IMG/VR virus record: IMGVR_UViG_2895374923_000003
Span: 1 to 64,000 of that record
Reading direction: 5' to 3' (one strand)
Length of the DNA stretch: 64,000 nt
From: a virus
Taxonomy: Duplodnaviria; Caudoviricetes
The notes under the pieces were generated by a model that did not search any database, had not been told where the DNA came from, and was given only the letters and a program-made list of their open reading frames with translations. The position numbers and the translations under genes are program-made. Of this stretch, positions 376 to 29,478 are shown piece by piece (positions within the stretch are counted from its first letter, which is position 1; the number at the start of each line of letters is the position of its first letter).

Positions 376-1956
376 GTGACATTGACGGCCGATGATGACC
401 TGCTCGACTACGAACTGCTGGATGAGACGGAGACCGAGCGCCAGGCGCGCGAGGACACCGAGGTTCGGCTGGATGAAATCTCGCAGGCGAACGTCGACCT
501 CATTGTCGACAAGACCATGGTCGTGGTCGACGAGCTAAGCGGGCATCCGCTCTACGAATATCAGAAGCCTTTCGCCCGCCGATTCGTCGAGTCCCTCGTC
601 ATCGGTGATGGCGCCACCTTGACCGCGCTCTTCTCCCGGCAGAGTGGGAAAAGTGAGACCGTGGCCAACGTCATTGCGGCCGTGATGATCCTCTTCCCCG
701 TGCTGTCCAGGATCTTCCCCGAGCTCATGGGCAAATTTCGGGAGGGTGTCTGGGTCGGTGCCTTCGCTCCGGTGGATGATCAGGCGGACAACCTGTACGC
801 CCGCATCGTCTCCCGCCTGACCAGTGACCGCGCCATGGAACTCATGACCGACCCGGACATCGACGACTCCGTCCGGGCCAAGGGCCGCACGCTGACCCTG
901 CGCTCCGGCTCCCTCGTGCGCAAGCAGACCTGCCACCCTCGCGCGATCATTGAGGGCCGCACCTACCACGTCATCCTGATCGACGAGTGTCAGGGTGCCG
1001 ACGAGAGAGTCGTCAACAAGAGCATTGGCCCGATGGGTGCCTCGACTAACGCCACCATGGTCTTCACCGGAACGCCTTCCTACGAGAAGGGTGTCTTCTA
1101 CCGCACGATCCAGCTCAACAAGCGCCAGGCCACCAAGCGAGGCTCTCGCCAGAACCATTTCGAGGCCGACTGGAAGGCCGCCGCCAAGGCCAATCCGCAC
1201 TATGGCCGGTTCGTGAAGAAGGAACTGCTGAGAATCGGCGAGGACAGCGACGAGTTCAAGCTGTCGTACAGGTTGATGTGGCTGCTGGCTCAGGGCATGT
1301 TCACCACGGCCGAGGTCATCTCCAGCCTCGGCGACAAGAGCATGGAGATCGTGAAGGACTGGTATCGCAGCCCGATCCTGGTGGGCATCGACCCAGCCCG
1401 AAAGCAGGACTCCACCATCGCCACGGCCGTGTGGGTCGACTGGGCCAACCCGGACGAGTTCGGCTTCTACAACCACCGGATCTTGAACTGGCTCGACCTG
1501 TCCGGCATGAACTGGGAGGAACAATACTTCCGGTTGGTGGAATGGATGAGCCACTACTACGTCTACAAGGTGGGCGTGGACAGCGGGGGTGTCGGCGATG
1601 CGGTCGCCCAGCGCCTCCAGGTCCTGATGCCAGGCGTGGAGGTCGTCCCGCTCGGCAGCCAGCGGCCCGACCAGTCCAAGCGCTGGAAGCACCTGTCCCA
1701 GCTCCTCGACAGGCACCGGATCGCCTGGCCAGCGCACGCCAAGACCCGCCGGTTGCGCACCTACCGCCGCTTCGCGCAGCAGATGGAAGACCTCCAACTC
1801 GTCTACACCGGCCCGTACATGCTCGCCGAGGCTCCCAACGAAGCCGACGCCCACGACGACTACCCGGACTCCCTGGCGATGGCCTGCATCCTGGCCTCTG
1901 ACGACAACCAAATGCCCGAGATCGAGGTCGGCAATAACCCGTTCTTTCGCCGCTGA
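376..1956 (+). CDS. terL: Terminase large subunit
   Basis: Walker A SRQSGKSE, Walker B VILIDE, nuclease motifs VGIDPA and DDYPDSLA; upstream of portal. Confidence 0.95.
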   Translation: MTLTADDDLLDYELLDETETERQAREDTEVRLDEISQANVDLIVDKTMVVVDELSGHPLYEYQKPFARRFVESLVIGDGATLTALFSRQSGKSETVANVIAAVMILFPVLSRIFPELMGKFREGVWVGAFAPVDDQADNLYARIVSRLTSDRAMELMTDPDIDDSVRAKGRTLTLRSGSLVRKQTCHPRAIIEGRTYHVILIDECQGADERVVNKSIGPMGASTNATMVFTGTPSYEKGVFYRTIQLNKRQATKRGSRQNHFEADWKAAAKANPHYGRFVKKELLRIGEDSDEFKLSYRLMWLLAQGMFTTAEVISSLGDKSMEIVKDWYRSPILVGIDPARKQDSTIATAVWVDWANPDEFGFYNHRILNWLDLSGMNWEEQYFRLVEWMSHYYVYKVGVDSGGVGDAVAQRLQVLMPGVEVVPLGSQRPDQSKRWKHLSQLLDRHRIAWPAHAKTRRLRTYRRFAQQMEDLQLVYTGPYMLAEAPNEADAHDDYPDSLAMACILASDDNQMPEIEVGNNPFFRR

Positions 1957-9838: not shown

Positions 9839-11389
9839 GTGGCGAATTACCTCACGCCAGGGGTCTATGTCGAGGAAAACCTCGCGCCCCCGGGCCTGGG
9901 CGACGGATCAGCCTCACGCGCGGTGGCCGCGTTCGTCGGCATCGCGCCCAAGGGCCCGACCCTGCCGACCCGCGTCCGCTCCTGGGCCCAGTACGTCAAC
10001 CTGTTCGGCGGGTTCACCGGCCCCACGAGCTGGCTGCCGTACGCGGTCTACCTCTACTTCGCCAACGGCGGCACCTCATGCTTCATCGCCAGGGCCACCC
10101 GGGCGGACGCCGTTGCGGCCACGGCCACCCTGATGGACTCCACCAAGGCCCAGGACCAGGGACCCAAGCCCGCCTTCAAGGTCACCGCGCTGGCCGAGGG
10201 CGTGTGGGGCAACGCCACCAGCATCAAGATCGTGCCCACCGGGGCGCCGTCGGGCCGCTTCGACCTGATCGTGCTCGACGACGGCCGCGAGTCCGAGCGG
10301 TTCACCGACCTGTCCAGCGACCCCGGTGACTCCCGCTACGTCATCTCGATCGTCAACAGCCCCTACTCCGGCAGCATCTACCTCCGGCTGGCCAACCAGA
10401 AGGTCAACACCGAGGGGTATCAGTACAACCCGGCCACCGACGTGGTCCCGGCCCAGACCCTCGTCCTCAACGGCGGCTCGGAGGGCGTGCAGGCGTACGA
10501 TCTGGCCGAGGCTGCCAAGTCCCTCCAGGACGTCCCGGCGATCAACTTTGACCTCAACCTGCCCGGCGTCTCCCAGGTGGCGGTGCTCAACCCGATCATC
10601 GACTGGGCCGCCTCCACCGGACGGGTCTTCGTCGTCATCGACGGACCCAGGGCCGCCGAGGGTTCCACCTCCGCCCAGGTCATGGCCGGGTACCTGTCCA
10701 TGGTCAACGCCGCCACCCCGCTGGTCGCCTCCTCCTACGCGGCCATCTACGGCCCGTGGATCATGACCAGCGACCCGAGCTCCACCCTGTACGGCGCGGT
10801 GCGGCTGCTCCCGCCAGGCGGCGCGATGCTCGGCCAGATGGCCAAGACCGACGTCGAACGGCACGTCGCCAAGGCCCCCGCTGGCATCCCCACCACCTTG
10901 GCCGCGGTCGTGGCAGCCGAGGCCCGCTTCACCGAGGGCGAGCTGGACACGCTGGCAGACGCCCACATCAACGTCGTGCGCCTGATCCCCGGCTACGGCC
11001 ACTGCATCATGGGCGCCCGCACGCTCAAGCGCGAACTGCCCGACCGCTACGTCCCGGTCCGCAGGACGCTGATCATGCTGCGCAAGACGCTGGCCGACAC
11101 CAGCCGTTTCGCCGTCTTCGAGCCCAACGGGCCCGACCTGTGGGAGCGGGTACGCCTGGTCCTCACCAAGTACCTGTCCGGCCTGCTCAAGGCAGGCGTG
11201 CTGGCAGGTCAGAGCGAGTCCGAAGCCTTCTTCGTGCGCTGCGACCAGGACAACAACCCGCAGTCCCAGATCAACGCCGGGCGCCTCAACATCGACATCG
11301 GCGTCGCCCTGCGCTACCCGGCGGAATTCGTGATCATCCGGCTCGGCCAGCACCACGGCGGCACCGACTCGGCCGAAGACAACCTCTGA
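9839..11389 (+). CDS. Contractile tail sheath protein
   Basis: YLTPGVYVEE N-terminus; GARTL, YVPVRR, FAVFEPN, FFVRCD, PAEFVIIRL motifs. Confidence 0.97.
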   Translation: MANYLTPGVYVEENLAPPGLGDGSASRAVAAFVGIAPKGPTLPTRVRSWAQYVNLFGGFTGPTSWLPYAVYLYFANGGTSCFIARATRADAVAATATLMDSTKAQDQGPKPAFKVTALAEGVWGNATSIKIVPTGAPSGRFDLIVLDDGRESERFTDLSSDPGDSRYVISIVNSPYSGSIYLRLANQKVNTEGYQYNPATDVVPAQTLVLNGGSEGVQAYDLAEAAKSLQDVPAINFDLNLPGVSQVAVLNPIIDWAASTGRVFVVIDGPRAAEGSTSAQVMAGYLSMVNAATPLVASSYAAIYGPWIMTSDPSSTLYGAVRLLPPGGAMLGQMAKTDVERHVAKAPAGIPTTLAAVVAAEARFTEGELDTLADAHINVVRLIPGYGHCIMGARTLKRELPDRYVPVRRTLIMLRKTLADTSRFAVFEPNGPDLWERVRLVLTKYLSGLLKAGVLAGQSESEAFFVRCDQDNNPQSQINAGRLNIDIGVALRYPAEFVIIRLGQHHGGTDSAEDNL

Positions 11390-18789: not shown

Positions 18790-19215
18790 ATGGCGCTTAC
18801 GCTGCCCTCCGCGATAGACCTGCCGTTCCGGATCGAAAACGGCGCCATCGCCTCCAACCGCGACGTCGACCGGCAGATCCGCCAGCGGCTCATCGGCATC
18901 ATCGGCACCAACCCCGGCGAGCGGGTCATGCAGCCCACCCTCGGCGTCGGAGTCGCTCGCATGCTGTTCGAGACCGACATCAAGGTGGTCACCGCGCTGC
19001 TGACCACCGACATCAAGCGCCAGGCCGCCGCCTACGAACCGGGCGCCGTCATCACCCGCGTCATCGTCACCGACCACGAGGAACCCGGCAAGGGCATGCT
19101 GGATGTCGCCTACCGCCGTACCGACGCCTCCGACTCCGACCCGGCCGCCGCCCGCCACATCCACACCGCGACCATCGGCCGCGACGGCACCGTCAAGGAG
19201 CACCTGCGTGGCTGA
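18790..19215 (+). CDS. Baseplate wedge protein, GPW/gp25 family
   Basis: TNPGERVMQPTLG...LFE, YEPGAVI motifs. Confidence 0.9.
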   Translation: MALTLPSAIDLPFRIENGAIASNRDVDRQIRQRLIGIIGTNPGERVMQPTLGVGVARMLFETDIKVVTALLTTDIKRQAAAYEPGAVITRVIVTDHEEPGKGMLDVAYRRTDASDSDPAAARHIHTATIGRDGTVKEHLRG

Positions 19216-20689
19216 GCAGAACGTCTCCCTCGACTACACCGCCCGCGACTTCGACGCCATCGTCGCCGAGCTGCTGCGCCAGGCCGAGCAGGTCATGCCC
19301 GAGTGGACCTCGCGCGGCGAAGGCGACCCCGGCATGATGCTCGTGCGCCTGAAGGCGTACGCGGCCGAGCTGAACAACTACTACATCGACCGGGCGGTGG
19401 GGGAGTCGGTCCTGGCCACCGCCACCACCCGGGCCGCCGTCTTGGCCCTGGCCGAGCAGGTCGGCTACATCACCCACGGCACCATCCCAGCTACCGGCAG
19501 CATCACCTTCGCCACCGATCCGGGCGGGCCCGCCGTGACCGTGCCCAAGGGCACCCAACTGCTGTCGGACTACGTGGCCGCGGTCGACCAGCCGGTCACC
19601 TTCGAGACCGACGCCGACCTCCTGGTGCCCGCAGCCGGCGGCACGGCCGTGGCCGCCATCACCCAGGGCGTCACCATCGCCCCCTTCGAGGCCGGATCCG
19701 GCACCGGCAGCTCCGGCCAATCCCTGGTCCTCGCCACCCCCGGCGTCATCGAAGGCTCGGTCCGGATCTGGGTGGAGGCCCCGCACGCCAACATCGAATG
19801 GATCCGCAAGTCCCGGCTGATCCAGGCCGCACCCACCGAGCGCGTCTTCACCACGCGCCTGCGCGCCGACGGCGCCACCATCGTCATGTTCGGCAACGGC
19901 GCCAACGGCGCCATCCCCGAGCTCGGCGCGACCATCTACGCCTCCTACCGGGTCGGGGTTGGCAAGGCCGGAAACCTGCCCGCCAGCAAGATCCTCCACC
20001 TGGCCACCTCCGGCCTGATCGGCGTCCAGATCGCCACCGACGCCTCCGGCAAGCCGATCAGCACCGCCACCACCGGCGGAGCCGACCCCGAAGGCAACGA
20101 CGAGATCCGCCGCAACGCCCCCCAGGCGTTCGCCGCCCAATACCGGTGCGTCACCAAGGACGACTTCTCCCGCGCCGCGCTCGAGGTGCCTGGCGTTTCG
20201 GCCGCCAACACGGTCGCCGCCCGGCCCCAGTCGGTGACCGTGTTCGTCACCGGACCCGACCGCACCACCCCCAACGCCCAGCTCCTGGACACCGCCACCG
20301 CGCACCTGAACGCCCGCGCCCTGGCCGGAACCGTCGTCTCCGTCCAAGGCCCAACCTTCGTGCCGGTCAACTTCGGCACCGACGCCCTGCCCGTCAAGGT
20401 GTGGGTCGCCCCCGGCTGGCGCGACATCCACGTCAAGGCAGCCGTCCAGGCCGCGCTCGCGGGCCTGTTCAAGGACGACGCCGTCACCTTCGGCGTCCGG
20501 GTAACCCTGTCCCAGGTCTACTCCGCGGTCGCCACCCTGTCCGGCGTGCTCAACGTCAACATCCCGGTCATGGCCCGCGCCGACACCGCCCAGTCCGGGG
20601 CCGACGACGCCGTCATGGCCCTGTTCGAGATGCCCGTCCTGGGCACCGTCAAAATCGTCACCTCCGGTGGCGTCATCGCCCCCGTCTAG
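19208..20689 (+). CDS. Baseplate J/gp47 family protein
   Basis: LDYTARDFDAI, EWTSRGEGDPG, FGNGANGAIP, GGADPE, RCVTKDDF. Confidence 0.93.
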   Translation: MAEQNVSLDYTARDFDAIVAELLRQAEQVMPEWTSRGEGDPGMMLVRLKAYAAELNNYYIDRAVGESVLATATTRAAVLALAEQVGYITHGTIPATGSITFATDPGGPAVTVPKGTQLLSDYVAAVDQPVTFETDADLLVPAAGGTAVAAITQGVTIAPFEAGSGTGSSGQSLVLATPGVIEGSVRIWVEAPHANIEWIRKSRLIQAAPTERVFTTRLRADGATIVMFGNGANGAIPELGATIYASYRVGVGKAGNLPASKILHLATSGLIGVQIATDASGKPISTATTGGADPEGNDEIRRNAPQAFAAQYRCVTKDDFSRAALEVPGVSAANTVAARPQSVTVFVTGPDRTTPNAQLLDTATAHLNARALAGTVVSVQGPTFVPVNFGTDALPVKVWVAPGWRDIHVKAAVQAALAGLFKDDAVTFGVRVTLSQVYSAVATLSGVLNVNIPVMARADTAQSGADDAVMALFEMPVLGTVKIVTSGGVIAPV

Positions 20690-20696
20690 GAACGGC

Positions 20697-21383
20697 ATGG
20701 CAGCTACCTACCCGGGCGGGATCCGCACCTGGACCACCAAACTGGGCTGGCGCAACATCGTGTGGGCCAGCCACGTCAACGAGCTCCAGGACGAGGAAGA
20801 CGCCACCCAGCGCATCCTCGGGCTCAACCCGCACCAGGCCCGCAACAACCCCGGCGGGCTCAGCCGCGACTACGGCACCCTGGCCCGCCGCCTGACCGCC
20901 CACGCACGAGGCGAAGACCTGCCCTTCTACCGCGGCATGGCCAAGTCGATGAAGACCACCCCCAACACCTGGAACACCGTCGCCTTCGAGCACCGCTCCG
21001 ACCCCTTCGAGCTGGCCGACAGCGGACCGGCAATCAAGCTCAACACCCACGGGCTGTGGGTGCTGGCCGCCCGCGCCGAATGGCGGGCCACCGGCTACAG
21101 CCTGCAAAAACGAGCCAAGCGGCGCCTGCGCATCCTGCTGGATGACAAGGACGTCGGCCTGTCGGACTTCACCGCCGAGGACGCCCGCAACAGCTTCGCC
21201 CTGCACAACCAAGTCACCTGGCAGGAAGTCCTGCCCCGAGGAACCCGTGTCTCGGTCCAGGTCCGCACCAACCTGGACGCCCCGCCCCACGATCTGCTGG
21301 CCAACATCGTGCTGCGCGCCTACCTGGTGCGCTGCGTCGACCGCGTGATCAACGACGGCGCACTGCTGCGCCCGGCGGCCTGA
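20697..21383 (+). CDS. Tail fibre family paralog 1 (conserved N-anchor plus C1q-like beta domain)
   Basis: MAATYPGGIRTWTTK...HVNELQDE anchor shared with 21404 and 22822; beta-rich C-terminus ending LRAYLVR. Confidence 0.7.
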   Translation: MAATYPGGIRTWTTKLGWRNIVWASHVNELQDEEDATQRILGLNPHQARNNPGGLSRDYGTLARRLTAHARGEDLPFYRGMAKSMKTTPNTWNTVAFEHRSDPFELADSGPAIKLNTHGLWVLAARAEWRATGYSLQKRAKRRLRILLDDKDVGLSDFTAEDARNSFALHNQVTWQEVLPRGTRVSVQVRTNLDAPPHDLLANIVLRAYLVRCVDRVINDGALLRPAA

Positions 21384-21403
21384 CGCGGCAAGGAGCACCT
21401 GAA

Positions 21404-21766
21404 TTGGCCGCGAGCTACCCCTCCGCCTTCCGCGCCTGGTCGACCAAGTTCGACTACACCACGATCGTGTTCGCCGAACACGTCAACACCCTCCAAGACG
21501 AGCTGCTGGCCGTCCAGCGCACCCTGGGCACCACGCCCCAGATCGCCGCCAGCGACCCCGGCAGCACCCCCTACGAACTGCTGCCCATCGTCGAATGGAT
21601 CGGCCGCGCCCCCGAGACCGACATCCCGCGCATCATCGACGTCCTCACCGACCGCGCGCCCGTCCGCCACAACTACGACCCGGCCAAAATCCGCGACTGC
21701 CTGCTCGACATCTGGCCTGACTGGGGCACCCGCTACCCGTCCCTGCCCTGGGGCGGTACGGCATGA
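21404..21766 (+). CDS. Tail fibre family paralog 2, N-terminal half (anchor plus WIG segment)
   Basis: TTG start; AASYPSAFRAWSTK...HVNTLQDEL; paralog similarity stops at DPGSTP. Confidence 0.75.
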   Translation: MAASYPSAFRAWSTKFDYTTIVFAEHVNTLQDELLAVQRTLGTTPQIAASDPGSTPYELLPIVEWIGRAPETDIPRIIDVLTDRAPVRHNYDPAKIRDCLLDIWPDWGTRYPSLPWGGTA

Positions 21767-22818
21767 GCGACCTCCTCCTCACCCCCCTGCCGTACGGGCA
21801 AGACGATCTGTTGGCCGTCGACCCCCACCGCATCGCCTCCTGGATCGGCAACAGCGACACCACCGCCCTGACCCTCCTGGGCCGCTACCTGCGCGACAAG
21901 CCCAACTGCACGCGCACCGAGATCAACGAAGCCGTCCGCCAGGCCGACCGGTGGACCTCGATCCCGCCCATCAAGACCGTGCCGCACCGGCCCAGCACCA
22001 AGCCGCCGTACGTCGCGCCGCGCGACCACGCCACCATCGAGCGGCGCATGACCTTCCAAGCCCGCGGCGGCCACCTGCCCTACGCTCGTGCGGGCATCTA
22101 CGACATGCAGGTCCCGGCCAACAAGTGGGCCCGCACCACCCTGCGCGCCTTCGACGACCCCTTCAAACTCGCCTCCGGCGACGGGCTGGTCATCAACCAG
22201 GACGGCTTGTGGACCCTCACCGTCAAGGTCGACTGGTCCCTCGGGCACGCCGAGGTCGTCTCCAGCGCCGCCCAGGCCACCCGCGTCATGGTCAACGGCT
22301 CCGACGTCGGCCTGCGCGACTACCTCGACGACGACGCCTACAGCATCAAGGCTCCCATCAACACCCTGACCTGGACCGACACCTTCCGCGCCGGCACCAC
22401 CCTGAACGTCGACATCCGCAGCGAAGGACTCGGCACCGGCTACACCGCCGTGGCCAACGTCTACGTCCGGCTCCACCTGGTCCGCGTGGCCGAAGACGGC
22501 TTCGACATGGAAGGCTTCCCGCTGCCGCCCGACCCCGAGCCGATCCCCGAAACGCCGCTGGGCGGCTACTGCGGGCCGAACGACCACCAGCCGACCTACC
22601 CGCGCCAGCCCAACACCTGCAACGACCGGGACTACGCCTTCACCTTCACCATCTCCGACGGCGGCCAGGTGGGCTCCTACCGGTGCGTCAACGGCCAGCT
22701 CACCACCGTCTGGTCCGCCTACGGCTGGGACGGCGGCCAATACTACGGCGGCGGTGTCGTGGGCGGAGACGGCTCCTCCTACGGGCCGGGACGCCCTTCC
22801 TACTCGGGCGGGTGGTGA
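21763..22818 (+). CDS. Tail fibre family paralog 2, C-terminal half (WIG segment plus C1q-like domain)
   Basis: ATGA overlap; paralog similarity resumes at RDHATIERRMTFQARGGHLPY; GLWTL, VRLHLVR. Confidence 0.75.
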   Translation: MSDLLLTPLPYGQDDLLAVDPHRIASWIGNSDTTALTLLGRYLRDKPNCTRTEINEAVRQADRWTSIPPIKTVPHRPSTKPPYVAPRDHATIERRMTFQARGGHLPYARAGIYDMQVPANKWARTTLRAFDDPFKLASGDGLVINQDGLWTLTVKVDWSLGHAEVVSSAAQATRVMVNGSDVGLRDYLDDDAYSIKAPINTLTWTDTFRAGTTLNVDIRSEGLGTGYTAVANVYVRLHLVRVAEDGFDMEGFPLPPDPEPIPETPLGGYCGPNDHQPTYPRQPNTCNDRDYAFTFTISDGGQVGSYRCVNGQLTTVWSAYGWDGGQYYGGGVVGGDGSSYGPGRPSYSGGW

Positions 22819-22821
22819 GCC

Positions 22822-24216
22822 GTGGCCCGCTACCCCGAGGCGTTCCGCTCCTTCACCACCAAGCGCGACCTGTCGCAGACCATCTTCGAGTCGCACGTCA
22901 ACGACATCCAAGACGAGCTGCGCGCCACCCAGACCGTCATCGGCGTCAACCCCCACATCGCCAACCTCAACCCCGGCGCCCGGCCCGACAACTACGGCAC
23001 CGTCGCCGCCCGCGCCACCGCCTACGCCCGCGGCGAGCACCTGCCCTACTTCCAGGGCTCAACCAAGAACTTCCAGCTCCGCGGCGGCAACCTCGTCAAG
23101 CCCAAGGACCCGATCCGCAAGCCGATGGACAACGACCGGTGGATCCACGAGACACTCGCCGGCCGCGGCGTGCTGGTGCGCGGCGACAACGCCCGCCAGG
23201 TGCACGCCTCCTACTACGACGCCCAGACCGGCGACAAACTGCTCGTCCCGCTGCACCCCACGGGCGGCTGGGTCAAAGCCCCCGTCTACGGGCCCGACAA
23301 CCAGCGCATCAAGATCCGCACCCCCAACTCGCCCGACTGGGCCAACCCGCCCGGCGGCCACACCACCGTCTCCGAGGCCACCTTCGACAGCTACGCCAAC
23401 GGCAGCCAGTGGTGGACGATCGTGATGGACACCTACTACCACGGCGACACCTACCTGGGCCGCTCCGGCACCTTCGCCGGGCGCATCCTTCTCGAACCCG
23501 GCGTCCCCGAGGTCGAACCGGGCCTGCCCATCGAAGACGACCCGGGCACCATCGGCGACGGCGGATGGCAGCGCCTGCCCATCAAGGGCGACGACGACAC
23601 CTTCGGCATCGGCTGGCACGACGGGGCCGTGCTGAACGAGACCGGCCTGTGGATGATGTCGCTGATGGTCGTCCACCAGCCCACCACGGAAACCACGACC
23701 GTCCGCGCCCGGCGCCGCGCCCGACTGGAGATCAACGGCCGCGACCACACCCTCCAGCACATGGTGCGCGAGAGCGCCGACAACGGCGACGCCCTGGTCA
23801 ACGTCATCCACTGGACCGAGGTGCTGTCCAAGGGCACCCAGATCAGCGCCTCGGCCCGGATCGACGGCACCGACCTGAAGGGCACCTACCCGGCCACCGC
23901 CTACCTGCGCCTGCACCTGGTACGCGTCACCGAGGGCGACGACGACGGCTTCCTGGACGACCACCCCAGCACGATCTACACCCCGCCACCCCCACCGCCC
24001 CCACCACCGCCGCCCCCGCCAACCGCGCCGCCCAACCCAACCGTGCCTGGCGACCACTACTACAACCCGTACCCGACCGGCCCGGTCTACGAGAACGACC
24101 TGTGCTGGATGTACCCCGAGCGCTTCCCGAACTGCCCCACCCACGGCAACCGGCCCACCCCGCCCAAGCACACCGGCCCCACGCCGAAACCCGGCGGCAA
24201 GAAGAAAAAGAAGTAG
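22822..24216 (+). CDS. Tail fibre family paralog 3 with inserted domain, poly-Pro tract and Lys tail
   Basis: Same anchor (YPEAFRSFTTK...HVNDIQDEL); GLWMM, LRLHLVR; 13 consecutive Pro; ends KKKKK. Confidence 0.75.
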   Translation: MARYPEAFRSFTTKRDLSQTIFESHVNDIQDELRATQTVIGVNPHIANLNPGARPDNYGTVAARATAYARGEHLPYFQGSTKNFQLRGGNLVKPKDPIRKPMDNDRWIHETLAGRGVLVRGDNARQVHASYYDAQTGDKLLVPLHPTGGWVKAPVYGPDNQRIKIRTPNSPDWANPPGGHTTVSEATFDSYANGSQWWTIVMDTYYHGDTYLGRSGTFAGRILLEPGVPEVEPGLPIEDDPGTIGDGGWQRLPIKGDDDTFGIGWHDGAVLNETGLWMMSLMVVHQPTTETTTVRARRRARLEINGRDHTLQHMVRESADNGDALVNVIHWTEVLSKGTQISASARIDGTDLKGTYPATAYLRLHLVRVTEGDDDGFLDDHPSTIYTPPPPPPPPPPPPPTAPPNPTVPGDHYYNPYPTGPVYENDLCWMYPERFPNCPTHGNRPTPPKHTGPTPKPGGKKKKK

Positions 24217-24240: not shown

Positions 24241-26694
24241 ATGGCTGTCTATCGCGTTGATCAATACGCGCGAACCTTCTACGGCCCCAACCCCGAAGTC
24301 CCGTACTTCCCCGAGCGCAGCTTCACCTCCTACTCGGTCGGATACGAAGGGGTCTTCCTGGCGTGGGACCAGCCCTCCGGCGCCTATGCCGGGTTCCGGC
24401 TGGTGGCCAGCCTCGACGGCTACCCCACCACCGAGACCGGCGGCACGGTACTCATCGACAGTCCCGCCGCGCCCGCCTCCCACCTGGACAAGGACGCCCC
24501 CAACGGCCGGTTCTGCTACTACGCCATCTTCCTTAAGATCAACAACGTGTGGGTACGCTCGGCCCTCACCTCCACCCTGCACATCGCCGACTACGGCTCG
24601 GTCCAGTGGATGTGGGAGCGCATCCCGCACCACTACCGGCTGCTGCGTGGCAACCACCTGACCGTGGACGCCGACTCCAACCAGACGCTCCTGCACTTCA
24701 TCAAGATCCTCGGCTACGGCCTGGACCGGGTCCGGACCTCGATGGAAGCAGCCCTGGAGTCCAGCGAACTGCGCACCACGCACATCACCACCGCCGCAGC
24801 CATCGCCGCCTCCATCGGCGCCTACGTCCCCGAGGGGCTGGCGCCCGACCAGATGCGGGCCCTGACCATCGACGCCGCCTACCTCGCCTCAGAACGCGGC
24901 CACCCCGCCGCGATGCGGTCCCTGGCGCAAGCCGTGTCCGGCTGGGACGTCGAACTGCGCAAGAGCGGCAACCTGATGCCCAGCTACGACCAGGCCGAGC
25001 AGATCACTCCGCGCTACCCGGCCTGGGACGCCTCCATCCGCTACAAGGTCGGCGACCTGGTCTCCACCGACTTCCACCTCTACCGATGCCTGGTGGCCGC
25101 CTACGGCATCGACCAGGCCCCGCCCGGCAACGGCAGCAACAACACCTGGTGGGCCGTGCACACCGCGATCCTGCCCAACGACGCCACCAACCCCGCCTGG
25201 GAAGCCGCACGGGCGACGATGCACGGCTGGTCAGCCGTCAGCTTCACCGGCCAGAGCCAGGACGCCACCAGCAAGGCCCTGCCCAAGCTCGTCATCGGCG
25301 TCCCCCACCCGGTCACCGACGACCGCGACGCCAACACCCTCACGGTCACCAACACCAGCGCCAGCGCGGCCGACATCGCCCTGCACTCCCTGCCTCCCAA
25401 CCCGGCCGCCACCTACGACCCGCTCCTGCCCATCACCCACGGCATCGCGCTGCCCCGCGTCCCGCGCTGGGAGGCAGCCCGCGCCTACCGCGCCGACGAC
25501 CTGGTCACCCACCGCGGCCAGGTGTATCGCGCGCTGCGGCGCTCCACCGGCAAGCAGCCCCAGGAGTCGCCCAGCGACTGGTCACTCAACAGCACCGACT
25601 CCCGCCTGAAGCTGACCGTCTCCGGCTACATCCACACACCCCACCTGGCCTCCCAGGCGGCAGCGCCGTGCTTCCCATACATCACCTGGTTCGACGAGCA
25701 GGGCAAGCAGATCGCCCGCGTCGAAGCCAAGAACAGCCCCGACACGCGCGTGCTGGACACCTTCACCGCCACCAGCGGAACCAACGCCATCTACCTGGCC
25801 AGCAACCAGGTAGCGGTCACCGCCGGAACCTCCTACGCCGTCCAGGGCCGCTTCTTCCAGACCGCGCCCTTCCCCTTCGACGTCGGCGTGGAGTGGTACA
25901 ACGCCTCCGGCACCTTCCTCAACTCCACCATGAGCTCGGTCACCGTGACCGCCTCCACCTGGCGCAGCTACACCGCGCCGCTCACCGCGCCGGCCACAGC
26001 CGCCAAGGCGGTGCTCACCCTCTACATGAACGTCGGCGCGCACCTGGCCCCGCCCACCACCTACGTCGATGAGTTCTACCTGGCCACCGCAGCCGCCCCG
26101 AGCACACCTTTGACGGCCGACTCGACCTTCGAGAACGGCTTTGCCACCTGGTATCTGGAGAACGCCTTCGCCGACATCACCACCGAGCGCGCCTACGCCG
26201 GGAGCCGATCACTGAAGCTCAGCGCTCTGGGCGCGGGCAACTACAGCCTCGGCGGCCGGGTCACCGAATACGGCAACAAGACCTGGACCGCCCGATCCAA
26301 CGGCTTCATCCGCGACAGCTACGCCAACGGCGTCGCACGCCCCCGCGCCGACGTGCGCTGCCTGTCGACCATCGACTACGGAAGCAAGGACGCCACGATC
26401 GCCGCCACCTTCGCCACCGCGCCCACCAAGGCATCCACCCGGCAGGCCCTGGTGCTGCGCTACCTGGACCAGAACAACTACCTGCGTGCCACCCGGACCC
26501 AGCTCGAGCGAGTCCAAGCAGGCGTGGTCACCGTCCTGGGCACCTACACCCGGCCAGTCACCGACGGCGACCGCCTGTCGGTGACGGTCTCGGGCGACAA
26601 CTACAGCGCGAAGATCAACGGAACCGCCGTCCTCGCCGCGACCAGCGCCTTCAACAACACCTCGACGATCTTCGGCCTGACCGTGGAGCCCTGA
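24241..26694 (+). CDS. Baseplate/tail protein (gpI-like) with CBM5/12 repeats and a CBM4/9-like insert
   Basis: WMWERIPHHYR...LLHFIKILGYGLD; AWDASIRYKVGDLV and RWEAARAYRADDLV chitin-binding-type repeats. Confidence 0.7.
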   Translation: MAVYRVDQYARTFYGPNPEVPYFPERSFTSYSVGYEGVFLAWDQPSGAYAGFRLVASLDGYPTTETGGTVLIDSPAAPASHLDKDAPNGRFCYYAIFLKINNVWVRSALTSTLHIADYGSVQWMWERIPHHYRLLRGNHLTVDADSNQTLLHFIKILGYGLDRVRTSMEAALESSELRTTHITTAAAIAASIGAYVPEGLAPDQMRALTIDAAYLASERGHPAAMRSLAQAVSGWDVELRKSGNLMPSYDQAEQITPRYPAWDASIRYKVGDLVSTDFHLYRCLVAAYGIDQAPPGNGSNNTWWAVHTAILPNDATNPAWEAARATMHGWSAVSFTGQSQDATSKALPKLVIGVPHPVTDDRDANTLTVTNTSASAADIALHSLPPNPAATYDPLLPITHGIALPRVPRWEAARAYRADDLVTHRGQVYRALRRSTGKQPQESPSDWSLNSTDSRLKLTVSGYIHTPHLASQAAAPCFPYITWFDEQGKQIARVEAKNSPDTRVLDTFTATSGTNAIYLASNQVAVTAGTSYAVQGRFFQTAPFPFDVGVEWYNASGTFLNSTMSSVTVTASTWRSYTAPLTAPATAAKAVLTLYMNVGAHLAPPTTYVDEFYLATAAAPSTPLTADSTFENGFATWYLENAFADITTERAYAGSRSLKLSALGAGNYSLGGRVTEYGNKTWTARSNGFIRDSYANGVARPRADVRCLSTIDYGSKDATIAATFATAPTKASTRQALVLRYLDQNNYLRATRTQLERVQAGVVTVLGTYTRPVTDGDRLSVTVSGDNYSAKINGTAVLAATSAFNNTSTIFGLTVEP

Positions 26695-29151: not shown

Positions 29152-29478
29152 ATGGCTGGTTTCGATACCGCCCTCGTGCTCGGCCTTGTGGTCGGGCCGT
29201 TCCTATCCCTGCTGGTCGGCCTAGTGACCAAGGCGTCGTGGTCCGGCGCGGTCAAGGGCCTGCTGCTGGCCGCCCTGTCGGCCCTCGACGGCTTCATCGT
29301 CGCCTGGGAGCAGGCGGCCGGCGCCGGTGACGTCTTCGACTGGCGCACGGCCCTGCTCGTGGCCGTCGGCGCCTTCATCGCCGCGCAGTCGGTGCACGAG
29401 GCGATCTGGAAGCCGACCGGCGCAACCGACGCCGTGCAGTCGGTCCTCGTCCGGGACAAGGTGGATCTGGCGGCGTGA
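29152..29478 (+). CDS. Holin-like membrane protein
   Basis: 108 aa, about three hydrophobic segments, follows the tail cassette. Confidence 0.7.
   Translation: MAGFDTALVLGLVVGPFLSLLVGLVTKASWSGAVKGLLLAALSALDGFIVAWEQAAGAGDVFDWRTALLVAVGAFIAAQSVHEAIWKPTGATDAVQSVLVRDKVDLAA

Follow-up and report, generated by a model that had tools for sequence, protein, structure and literature searches.

A tail fibre gene of actinobacterial prophages divided into two coupled genes between two apparently related helical segments

The DNA examined here, referred to as the window, is a stretch of 64,000 nucleotides (nt) from the IMG/VR virus record IMGVR_UViG_2895374923_000003 (Duplodnaviria; Caudoviricetes), in which three paralogous genes for short tail fibres (A, B and C) follow a gene for a Baseplate J-like protein. 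The middle paralog, B, is present as two adjacent genes, B1 and B2, and the break between them falls between two helical segments, WIG1 (the C-terminal extension of B1) and WIG2 (the N-terminal head of B2). An earlier note, made from the letters of the window, had described the middle paralog as two separately translated halves, and the analysis presented here supports that view: the two genes stay together in diverged prophages and are fused in two relatives, which suggests, as far as sequences can tell, that they would act as one unit. The reading that we favour, and consider rather probable, is a two-chain fibre in which B1 is an adaptor and B2 a tip, both joined non-covalently via WIG1 and WIG2.

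Anatomy of the divided gene

The three genes after that of Baseplate J have in common an N-terminal anchor of 56 amino acids (aa), with the pattern YP..R.W.TK.D...IV.A.H.N..QDEL.A.Q..LG..P. In paralogs A and C the anchor runs on directly into a homologous body, and in B it is found in one of two pieces, B1 being the sole anchor protein without a knob and B2 the sole knob protein without an anchor (Table 1). When a B1 profile was searched against the window's own genome, it picked up only three sequences, the anchors of A, of B1 and of C. Homology to A and C resumes in B2 at RDHATIERRMTFQARGGHLPY (RDHATIERR...), that is, at residue 87 or base 22021, and taking out the 449 nt in between (21572-22020) restores the anchor-to-knob layout of those paralogs. 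The coordinates of B1, B2 and this insert, the ATGA overlap and the change of frame all agree with the earlier note, and so do the 86 aa that it counted as added to the C-terminal half; for the N-terminal half, the 65 aa that it gave have to be corrected to 64 aa (65 codons with the stop).

The insert had also been claimed to be coding on both sides of the ATGA, and the guanine-plus-cytosine (GC) content at third codon positions (GC3) bears this out in the named frames. In the B1 frame it stays near 0.95 until about 21740, and in the B2 frame it is 0.93-1.00 afterwards, the switch of frame falling at about 21740-21766. Since GC3 follows the frame of each open reading frame (ORF), both parts of the insert are truly coding and do not form an intron-like spacer.

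Two side features of these genes may be mentioned. Most B2 homologs have in common the terminal segment found within 22531-22818 (GQVG...C..GQ.TT.WS.YGWDGGQYYGGG...W), for which AlphaFold2 (AF2) confidence is low. Furthermore, a 21-nt direct repeat (19/21 identical) lies in frame in both genes, at 21494-21514 and 21799-21819, encoding QDELLAV in the anchor of B1 and, where the head of B2 begins, QDDLLAV, with a weaker third copy (21569-21589) encoding PYELLPI at the start of WIG1. This repeat is specific to the window (other loci have QAEFLTG or QGEFLTG), no similarity was found between the anchor profile and the WIG1 and WIG2 profiles, and it could be due to chance or to a small gene conversion.

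Conservation of the split and fused relatives

The split is kept in 11 distinct prophage loci from Streptosporangium, Nonomuraea, Microbispora and metagenomes. The split order was found in Streptosporangium (L002, with L003 as a second assembly), Nonomuraea (L004, L005 and L016), Microbispora (L006) and five metagenomic or Logan contigs (L007 and L017-L020). In all 11 loci B1 and B2 are adjacent and coupled, and lie between paralogs A and C, the gene order in the relatives being Baseplate J, A, B1 (104-120 aa), B2, C and then two large proteins. The B2 homologs are 326-375 aa long and their heads are all of the kind M(A)LYGQ..FLTGDP.Q(V/I)A.W(I/L)...

What does vary is the way in which the two genes meet. 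The window and L006 have an ATGA junction (4-nt overlap) and most loci a TGATG or TAATG junction (1-nt overlap), while L020 has a 2-nt spacer and a GTG start, and L016 a 7-nt spacer, B2 being in the +1 frame in the latter and in the -1 frame elsewhere. Shine-Dalgarno (SD)-like motifs, GGAGG or GGGAG, are found inside the WPDWGG codons near the B2 start. These varied junction designs, together with the SD-like motifs, fit two genes kept by selection and not one recent frameshift. As regards annotation, the database B2 of the Nonomuraea jabiensis locus L016 (P0003, 266 aa) is miscalled, its start being an internal Met. The ORF that includes a normal WIG2 head (L016:2713-3801) begins 288 nt upstream of the P0003 start and 7 nt past the B1 stop.

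Two relatives carry the same parts in a single ORF, in the order anchor-WIG1-WIG2-linker-knob. One is P0012 (458 aa), from S. sandarakinum (L001), and the other P0018 (436 aa), which was found both in an ENA assembly and in an independent Logan run (L014 and L015). In both of them WIG1 and WIG2 are only a few residues apart, as expected if they were neighbours in the assembled fibre.

Relatedness and predicted structure of WIG1 and WIG2

The earlier note had pointed out a gap-free likeness between the two segments over 23 aa. In the window pair alone this likeness is weak (8/23 identities), and at the family level it is recovered in the same register: hhalign comparisons of WIG1 with WIG2 gave P 3.5e-4 with profiles of 7+11 sequences and P 8.5e-5 with profiles of 12+12 sequences (probability 60%, score 25.1, 24 columns). 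Column-shuffled controls never reached the observed score, neither in 200 trials of an earlier comparison (23.6 versus a maximum of 15.8) nor in 100 with the profiles of 12+12 sequences (25.1 versus a maximum of 17.0). Two MAFFT alignments were discarded, as they laid the heads of B2 over the anchor and over WIG1. Altogether, it is moderately supported that WIG1 and WIG2 form a tandem repeat of homologous domains, on the basis of 24-25 columns only.

In the alignment-based AF2 monomer model of the fused form P0012, the region equivalent to WIG1 contains helices at residues 92-98, 101-111 and 123-137, and that equivalent to WIG2 at residues 147-156, 159-170 and 180-187. The same pattern is thus seen twice, namely a short helix, a kink at G..P, a second helix and, past a loop of some 10 residues, a third, with a predicted local distance difference test score (pLDDT) of 35-55 in the WIG region. 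Without an alignment the mean pLDDT of the P0012 model is 34, and with it only the knob is confident, so that fold searches are uninformative on the WIG fold.

Searches for relatives of these segments returned little. PDB sequence searches with WIG1 and WIG2 profiles gave nothing better than E 0.3, and no Pfam, PHROG or PDB relatives were found. ESM Atlas yielded no usable match. Searched with hmmsearch, hidden Markov models (HMMs) of WIG1 and WIG2 matched nothing beyond the B genes in the window or in 20 loci. Against 1.84 billion representatives, the WIG1 profile recovered four proteins: the fused form, a B1-like cluster and two low-GC repeat proteins. The profile search for the WIG pair splitting other genes, which had been proposed as a check, thus yields none beyond the B family, as judged with WIG1 against the representatives and with both HMMs in the window and 20 loci. 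Judged from these searches, WIG1 and WIG2 appear to be a new small domain family, with members of about 55-60 aa each.

The two repeat proteins deserve a separate comment. P0016 (244 aa) and P0017 (643 aa) are low-GC tandem-repeat proteins, with 3-5 copies of ..KDA.AIFEFISKSPKEDLEKI..LAE.., and are dubious matches, covering only positions 3-28 of the WIG1 profile (its first 26), with E values of 8e-6 and 2e-5. The C-terminal end of P0017 is made of TPR repeats, and the repeat common to both proteins has no Pfam family. Their likeness to WIG1 may reflect a common helix-Pro-helix motif or an effect of composition.

The knob

The knob of P0012 (residues 223-362) is modelled by AF2 as a jelly-roll with a pLDDT of 76-89. 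In a Foldseek search of the PDB it matches the short tail fibre domain (CBD) of cyanophage A-1(L) (8ke9; E 4.4e-7, probability 1.00), and C1q domains, TNF ligands, 3rwn, 4k6b and 1yq5 are also matched with probability 1.00. The phage knobs matched, at E 4e-7 to 3e-5, include, besides 8ke9, the tail needle knobs of Sf6 and HS1 and PRD1 P5, and in BFVD many viral tail fibres are matched. These matches to TNF/C1q-like fibre heads make A, B and C short fibres with TNF/C1q-like knobs. What is alike between 8ke9, the Sf6 and HS1 needle knobs or PRD1 P5 and the bodies of A, B2 and C is the predicted jelly-roll fold, at an identity of only 7-16%, and the likeness concerns the knob and not the split. 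As the TNF/C1q-like fold is typically trimeric, a trimeric state would also be expected for these fibres.

Evolution of the B lineage

In the knob tree, the A, B and C clades have support values of 100/100, 98/99 and 99/99, respectively. The WIG pair is present in all ten B-clade knob genes of the tree and in no member of A or C, which indicates a single acquisition, at the anchor/knob hinge. Two fibres of the genome G050, unsplit and insert-free, fall outside the three clades. Within B, one branch joins the split L006 and the fused L001, and the other the fused L014 and all other splits, so that a split and a fused ancestor each require two changes on the tree. The window and L006, which belong to two deep B sub-clades, nonetheless have the same junction, GCATGAGCGAC (A-stop over M-S-D), and this would favour an ancestral split followed by two later re-fusions through small deletions.

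The segments of the gene have diverged to different extents, with identities among the B loci of 45-91% in the anchor, 40-84% in the knob, 24-57% in WIG1 and 26-72% in WIG2. The earlier note had imagined an exchangeable tip. Segment identity matrices reveal no clear swap, anchor, WIG1, WIG2 and knob co-varying roughly with one phylogeny, and the slight excess in anchor identity between the window and L006 (75% versus 66-71%) is unconvincing as a tip swap.

Other paralogs of these loci show changes of their own. In paralog C of S. sandarakinum (L001:7393-8757) the anchor/knob hinge is occupied by an insertion unlike the WIG pair (..NDPCCIDSGDDGHGHGHGHTTDRHYQN..), and the hinge thus seems tolerant of insertions. 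Paralog A is 380-386 aa long in L001:4832-5992 and L006:2501-3643, compared with 228-234 aa elsewhere; the long forms make up a 100/100 sub-clade of their own and their added part has no Pfam match.

A proposed two-chain fibre and its alternatives

The mechanism that we propose is the following. A, B and C are three paralogous short tail fibres, each with a baseplate anchor and a TNF/C1q-like knob that would be trimeric. The B lineage gained a pair of related domains, predicted to have three helices each, once at the hinge, and in most of its members the gene is divided exactly between these domains. B1 (anchor and WIG1) would be built into the baseplate via its anchor and act as an adaptor, and B2 (WIG2, linker, knob and C-terminal extension), which has no anchor, would be held on the virion through a non-covalent association of WIG2 with WIG1, either as an end-to-end or as a pseudo-symmetric helical joint. 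The stop/start overlap, or the very short spacer, would couple translation and keep both chains in step. The outcome would be a fibre of two chains that corresponds to the fused, single-chain forms of the two relatives. The analysis shows the gene anatomy, the coding status, the conservation, the fused relatives, the relatedness of WIG1 and WIG2 and the knob fold, whereas docking, a trimeric state and a part in adsorption are inferred. More tentatively, WIG1 and WIG2 might constitute an undescribed homologous helical pair that works as a specific non-covalent connector, mounting a receptor-binding tip on an adaptor stub in actinobacterial myovirus-type prophages, in a lineage that toggled between the fused and the split form at least twice.

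Several points weigh against this proposal. B2 could be attached to another baseplate or fibre protein instead of B1. Among the ordered parts, WIG1 and WIG2 evolve fastest, with a nonsynonymous substitution rate (dN) about three times that of the anchor or the knob and near that of the linker. Because the synonymous rate (dS) is saturated for most pairs, dN/dS ratios are unreliable and purifying selection is weakly shown. Furthermore, with a pLDDT of 35-55 in the WIG region, neither the fold nor the packing of WIG1 on WIG2 is established.

These same circumstances (a presumed B1-B2 binding, fast-evolving WIG regions, low AF2 confidence) would suit a different explanation, which we regard as unlikely: B1 and B2 might be proteins of the virion or of its assembly that are independent and have no contact with each other, the WIG domains being mere trimerisation or spacer modules, with B1 as a short stub or plug made of the anchor alone and competing for fibre sites, and B2 attached elsewhere by its own head. 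However, the two fusions imply that both parts work in series in one fibre, and the strict adjacency and coupling in 11 loci, the complementary domain content of the two proteins and a break lying exactly between two related domains are hardly what independent proteins would lead one to expect.

A decaying state, in which a frameshift interrupted a fused B and left B1, B2 or both as pseudogene remnants in a defective prophage, is in our opinion quite improbable. Fused forms do exist, fused- and split-ancestral histories cost the same two changes, and B2 is in the -1 frame at most junctions, as after a one-base indel; yet in 11 loci, diverged to a knob identity of as little as about 50%, both ORFs remain open and B2 is provided with a start and an SD-like motif, GC3 is 0.93-0.97 in both frames, neither frame is closed in any locus by the length differences in WIG1 and WIG2, and the GCATGAGCGAC junction recurs in the window and in the Microbispora locus, from two deep B sub-clades.

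The earlier note had gone further in calling the insert a portable module, that is, a 449-nt split-and-dock cassette moving between genes and splitting them. The insert does sit exactly at a domain hinge with its own stop/start, and the hinge of paralog C in L001 holds a different insertion, but every occurrence of the WIG pair is in one paralog clade and at one site, the search of 1.84 billion representatives with the WIG1 profile found only the B family and two partial matches to repeat proteins, and the WIG HMMs had no further match in the window and 20 loci, which makes portability highly improbable. As for a mobile insertion resembling an insertion sequence or a miniature inverted-repeat transposable element, the ends of the insert have no terminal inverted-repeat pair, their 6-mers recur at chance level, and neither the window nor the fetched loci contain other copies.

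Least credible of all is that the halves are joined into one product by a DNA excision of about 430-450 nt, RNA splicing, a split intein or programmed frameshifting: the AGCACC (21563, 21994) and TACG (21572, 22009) repeats, which had suggested excision or RNA-level joining, do recur at the named places and in the frame-restoring register, but 75% of random boundary pairs in the window share a 6-mer (25% in register), the repeats are conserved in none of seven other loci, Rfam 15 gave no match over 20500-23500 at E up to 1, and the insert is coding in both frames and retained as protein in the fused relatives. The individual mechanisms were discarded on their own grounds as well. An intron or another structured RNA has no Rfam match and would lie in DNA with GC3 0.93-0.97 throughout in the ORF frames. 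For an intein, there is no Pfam match, Hint families included (E up to 0.1, and up to 1 for the fused forms), the first insert residue after DPGSTP is Y, F or A and not Cys/Ser, and the insert ends in ..KPPQVGA or ..PPYVAP before (R/K)(D/N)H, with no HN + Cys/Ser/Thr. Programmed frameshifting is at odds with junctions that differ in every locus, an inconstant frame relation, spacers of 2 and 7 nt and the lack of a common slippery heptamer.

Genomic context

The window is high-GC actinobacterial DNA that carries an apparently complete contractile-tailed prophage, and its nearest protein relatives are those of Streptosporangium, Nonomuraea and Microbispora. Besides the genes listed in Table 1, the prophage encodes an SPP1-type portal, a capsid protein and, by comparison with related loci, a gp25-like protein. 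The occurrence of NlpC/P60 and SLT domains in one tape-measure protein points to two wall-degrading activities in the tail. The position of the Baseplate J gene is identical in all related loci. A, B1, B2 and C belong to no Pfam or PHROG family, and a DNA-level search of the phage collection gave no match. The prophage element is sporadic in the host family, the B1 profile (anchor included) having matches in 3 of 401 sampled genomes, the window's own genome counted. Downstream of paralog C, a large protein (24241-26694) has a CBM_5_12 domain (E 2.9e-9) and a weak CBM_4_9 match in Pfam, and is probably another tail protein that binds the host or the wall.

Table 1. Features of the divided fibre gene and of its surroundings in the window (positions of the 64,000-nt stretch)
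Feature	Position	Strand	Remarks
Terminase	376-1956		
Sheath	9839-11389		
Tape-measure-position protein, 973 aa	13009-15930		NlpC/P60 (E 1.4e-19) and SLT (E 5.8e-8)
Baseplate J-like wedge protein	19103-20689	+	Pfam PF04865 Baseplate_J, E 3.5e-18; directly 5' of the fibre paralogs
Fibre paralog A	20697-21383	+	56-aa anchor joined straight to knob, without WIG insert; alignment
B1 (baseplate anchor and 64-aa tail)	21404-21766	+	TTG start, AAGGAG 8 nt upstream
B1 anchor domain, residues 1-56	21404-21571	+	DPGSTP at residues 51-56; common to paralogs A and C
WIG1, helical C-terminal extension of B1, 64 aa	21572-21763	+	IVEWIG..AP..IIDVL...WPDW; kept in 11 split and 2 fused loci
ATGA stop/start overlap (B1 TGA, B2 ATG)	21763-21766	+	Putative translational-coupling junction
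B2 (86-aa head and knob)	21763-22818	+	-1 frame with respect to B1
WIG2, helical N-terminal head of B2	21763-21954	+	..DPHRIASWIGNSD..LTLLGRYL..INEAVRQ; alignments
Pro/Gly-rich linker, WIG2 to knob	21955-22020	+	Varies in length and sequence; dN highest of all segments
B2 knob, TNF/C1q-like jelly-roll	22021-22530	+	Homologous to the bodies of A and C; predicted structure and Foldseek
B2 C-terminal extension	22531-22818	+	Pro-rich spacer, then Cys-/Gly-rich terminal segment, final W
Fibre paralog C	22822-24216	+	Anchor joined straight to larger knob, without WIG insert; alignment
Holin	29152-29478		

Relation to known systems

The earlier note knew of no described equivalent, and this does not hold for the general design, since receptor-binding systems made of an adaptor and a docking protein are known, such as RBP1/RBP2 (receptor-binding proteins 1 and 2) of KP32 (PMC13352976). 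Branched or two-component receptor-binding protein systems have been described in podophages of Klebsiella, namely KP32, K11 and KP34 (PMC13352976, PMC8262889, PMC6872550), and in KP32-type phages a branching domain of RBP1 binds the N-terminal peptide of RBP2, the anchor being the sole attachment to the virion (PMC13352976). The fibre described here is similar in having the only anchor on the first protein and an anchorless product of the next gene that is proposed to dock by its N-terminus: alignments place the anchor on B1 only and show B2 to be without one, and the gene order in 11 loci keeps both genes adjacent. Nevertheless, RBP1 is a full tailspike within a branched complex, whereas B1 has nothing beyond its docking domain and would belong to a linear two-piece fibre. 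Instead of a branching domain and a short peptide, the joint here would consist of two predicted helical domains, each of some 55 aa and related to one another. Neither a T4gp10-like branching domain on B1 nor a short conserved peptide on B2 was found (no Pfam or PHROG match), and the host is an actinobacterium with a myovirus-type prophage in one case and Klebsiella with podophages in the other. B1 and B2 are therefore best seen as a likely analog of the KP32-like systems and not as a member of them.

Other phages assemble their fibres from several chains too. In the long tail fibre of T4, gp34, gp35, gp36 and gp37 are joined end to end, and in the lactococcal phage TP901-1 the adaptor BppU holds BppL. 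These systems resemble the proposed fibre in that separately translated chains are, or in our case would be, joined non-covalently, with a proximal chain for anchoring and a distal one for binding. No sequence or fold relation to them was found, and here, in contrast, each chain is half of a single paralog, there are fused orthologs, and the joint would lie between homologous domains. Rosetta-stone pairs, in which fusion and fission of genes are used to infer a physical or functional interaction, offer a further parallel, the genes being separate neighbours in most genomes and fused into one ORF in a few; they are, however, an inference rule and not a molecular family, so that they support a functional link between B1 and B2 but do not prove docking. 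A literature search on gene fission in tail fibres gave nothing specific. While the design of an adaptor with a docked tip is already known, this fibre differs in an adaptor that carries nothing else, in homologous (putative) docking domains of no described family and in the coexistence of split and fused orthologs. Given a known design principle and a narrow family (about a dozen protein clusters), the result refines existing knowledge and does not overturn it.

Receptor-binding fibres decide the host range of phages, and those of Streptosporangiaceae phages are almost wholly undescribed. The B lineage provides a natural experiment, in which the same fibre is a single chain in two lineages and a pair of coupled chains in 11 loci, and the position of the split, between related domains, predicts a specific docking pair. 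If this were true, WIG1 and WIG2 would represent a natural plug-and-socket, which could be used for mounting foreign tips on these actinobacterial phages.

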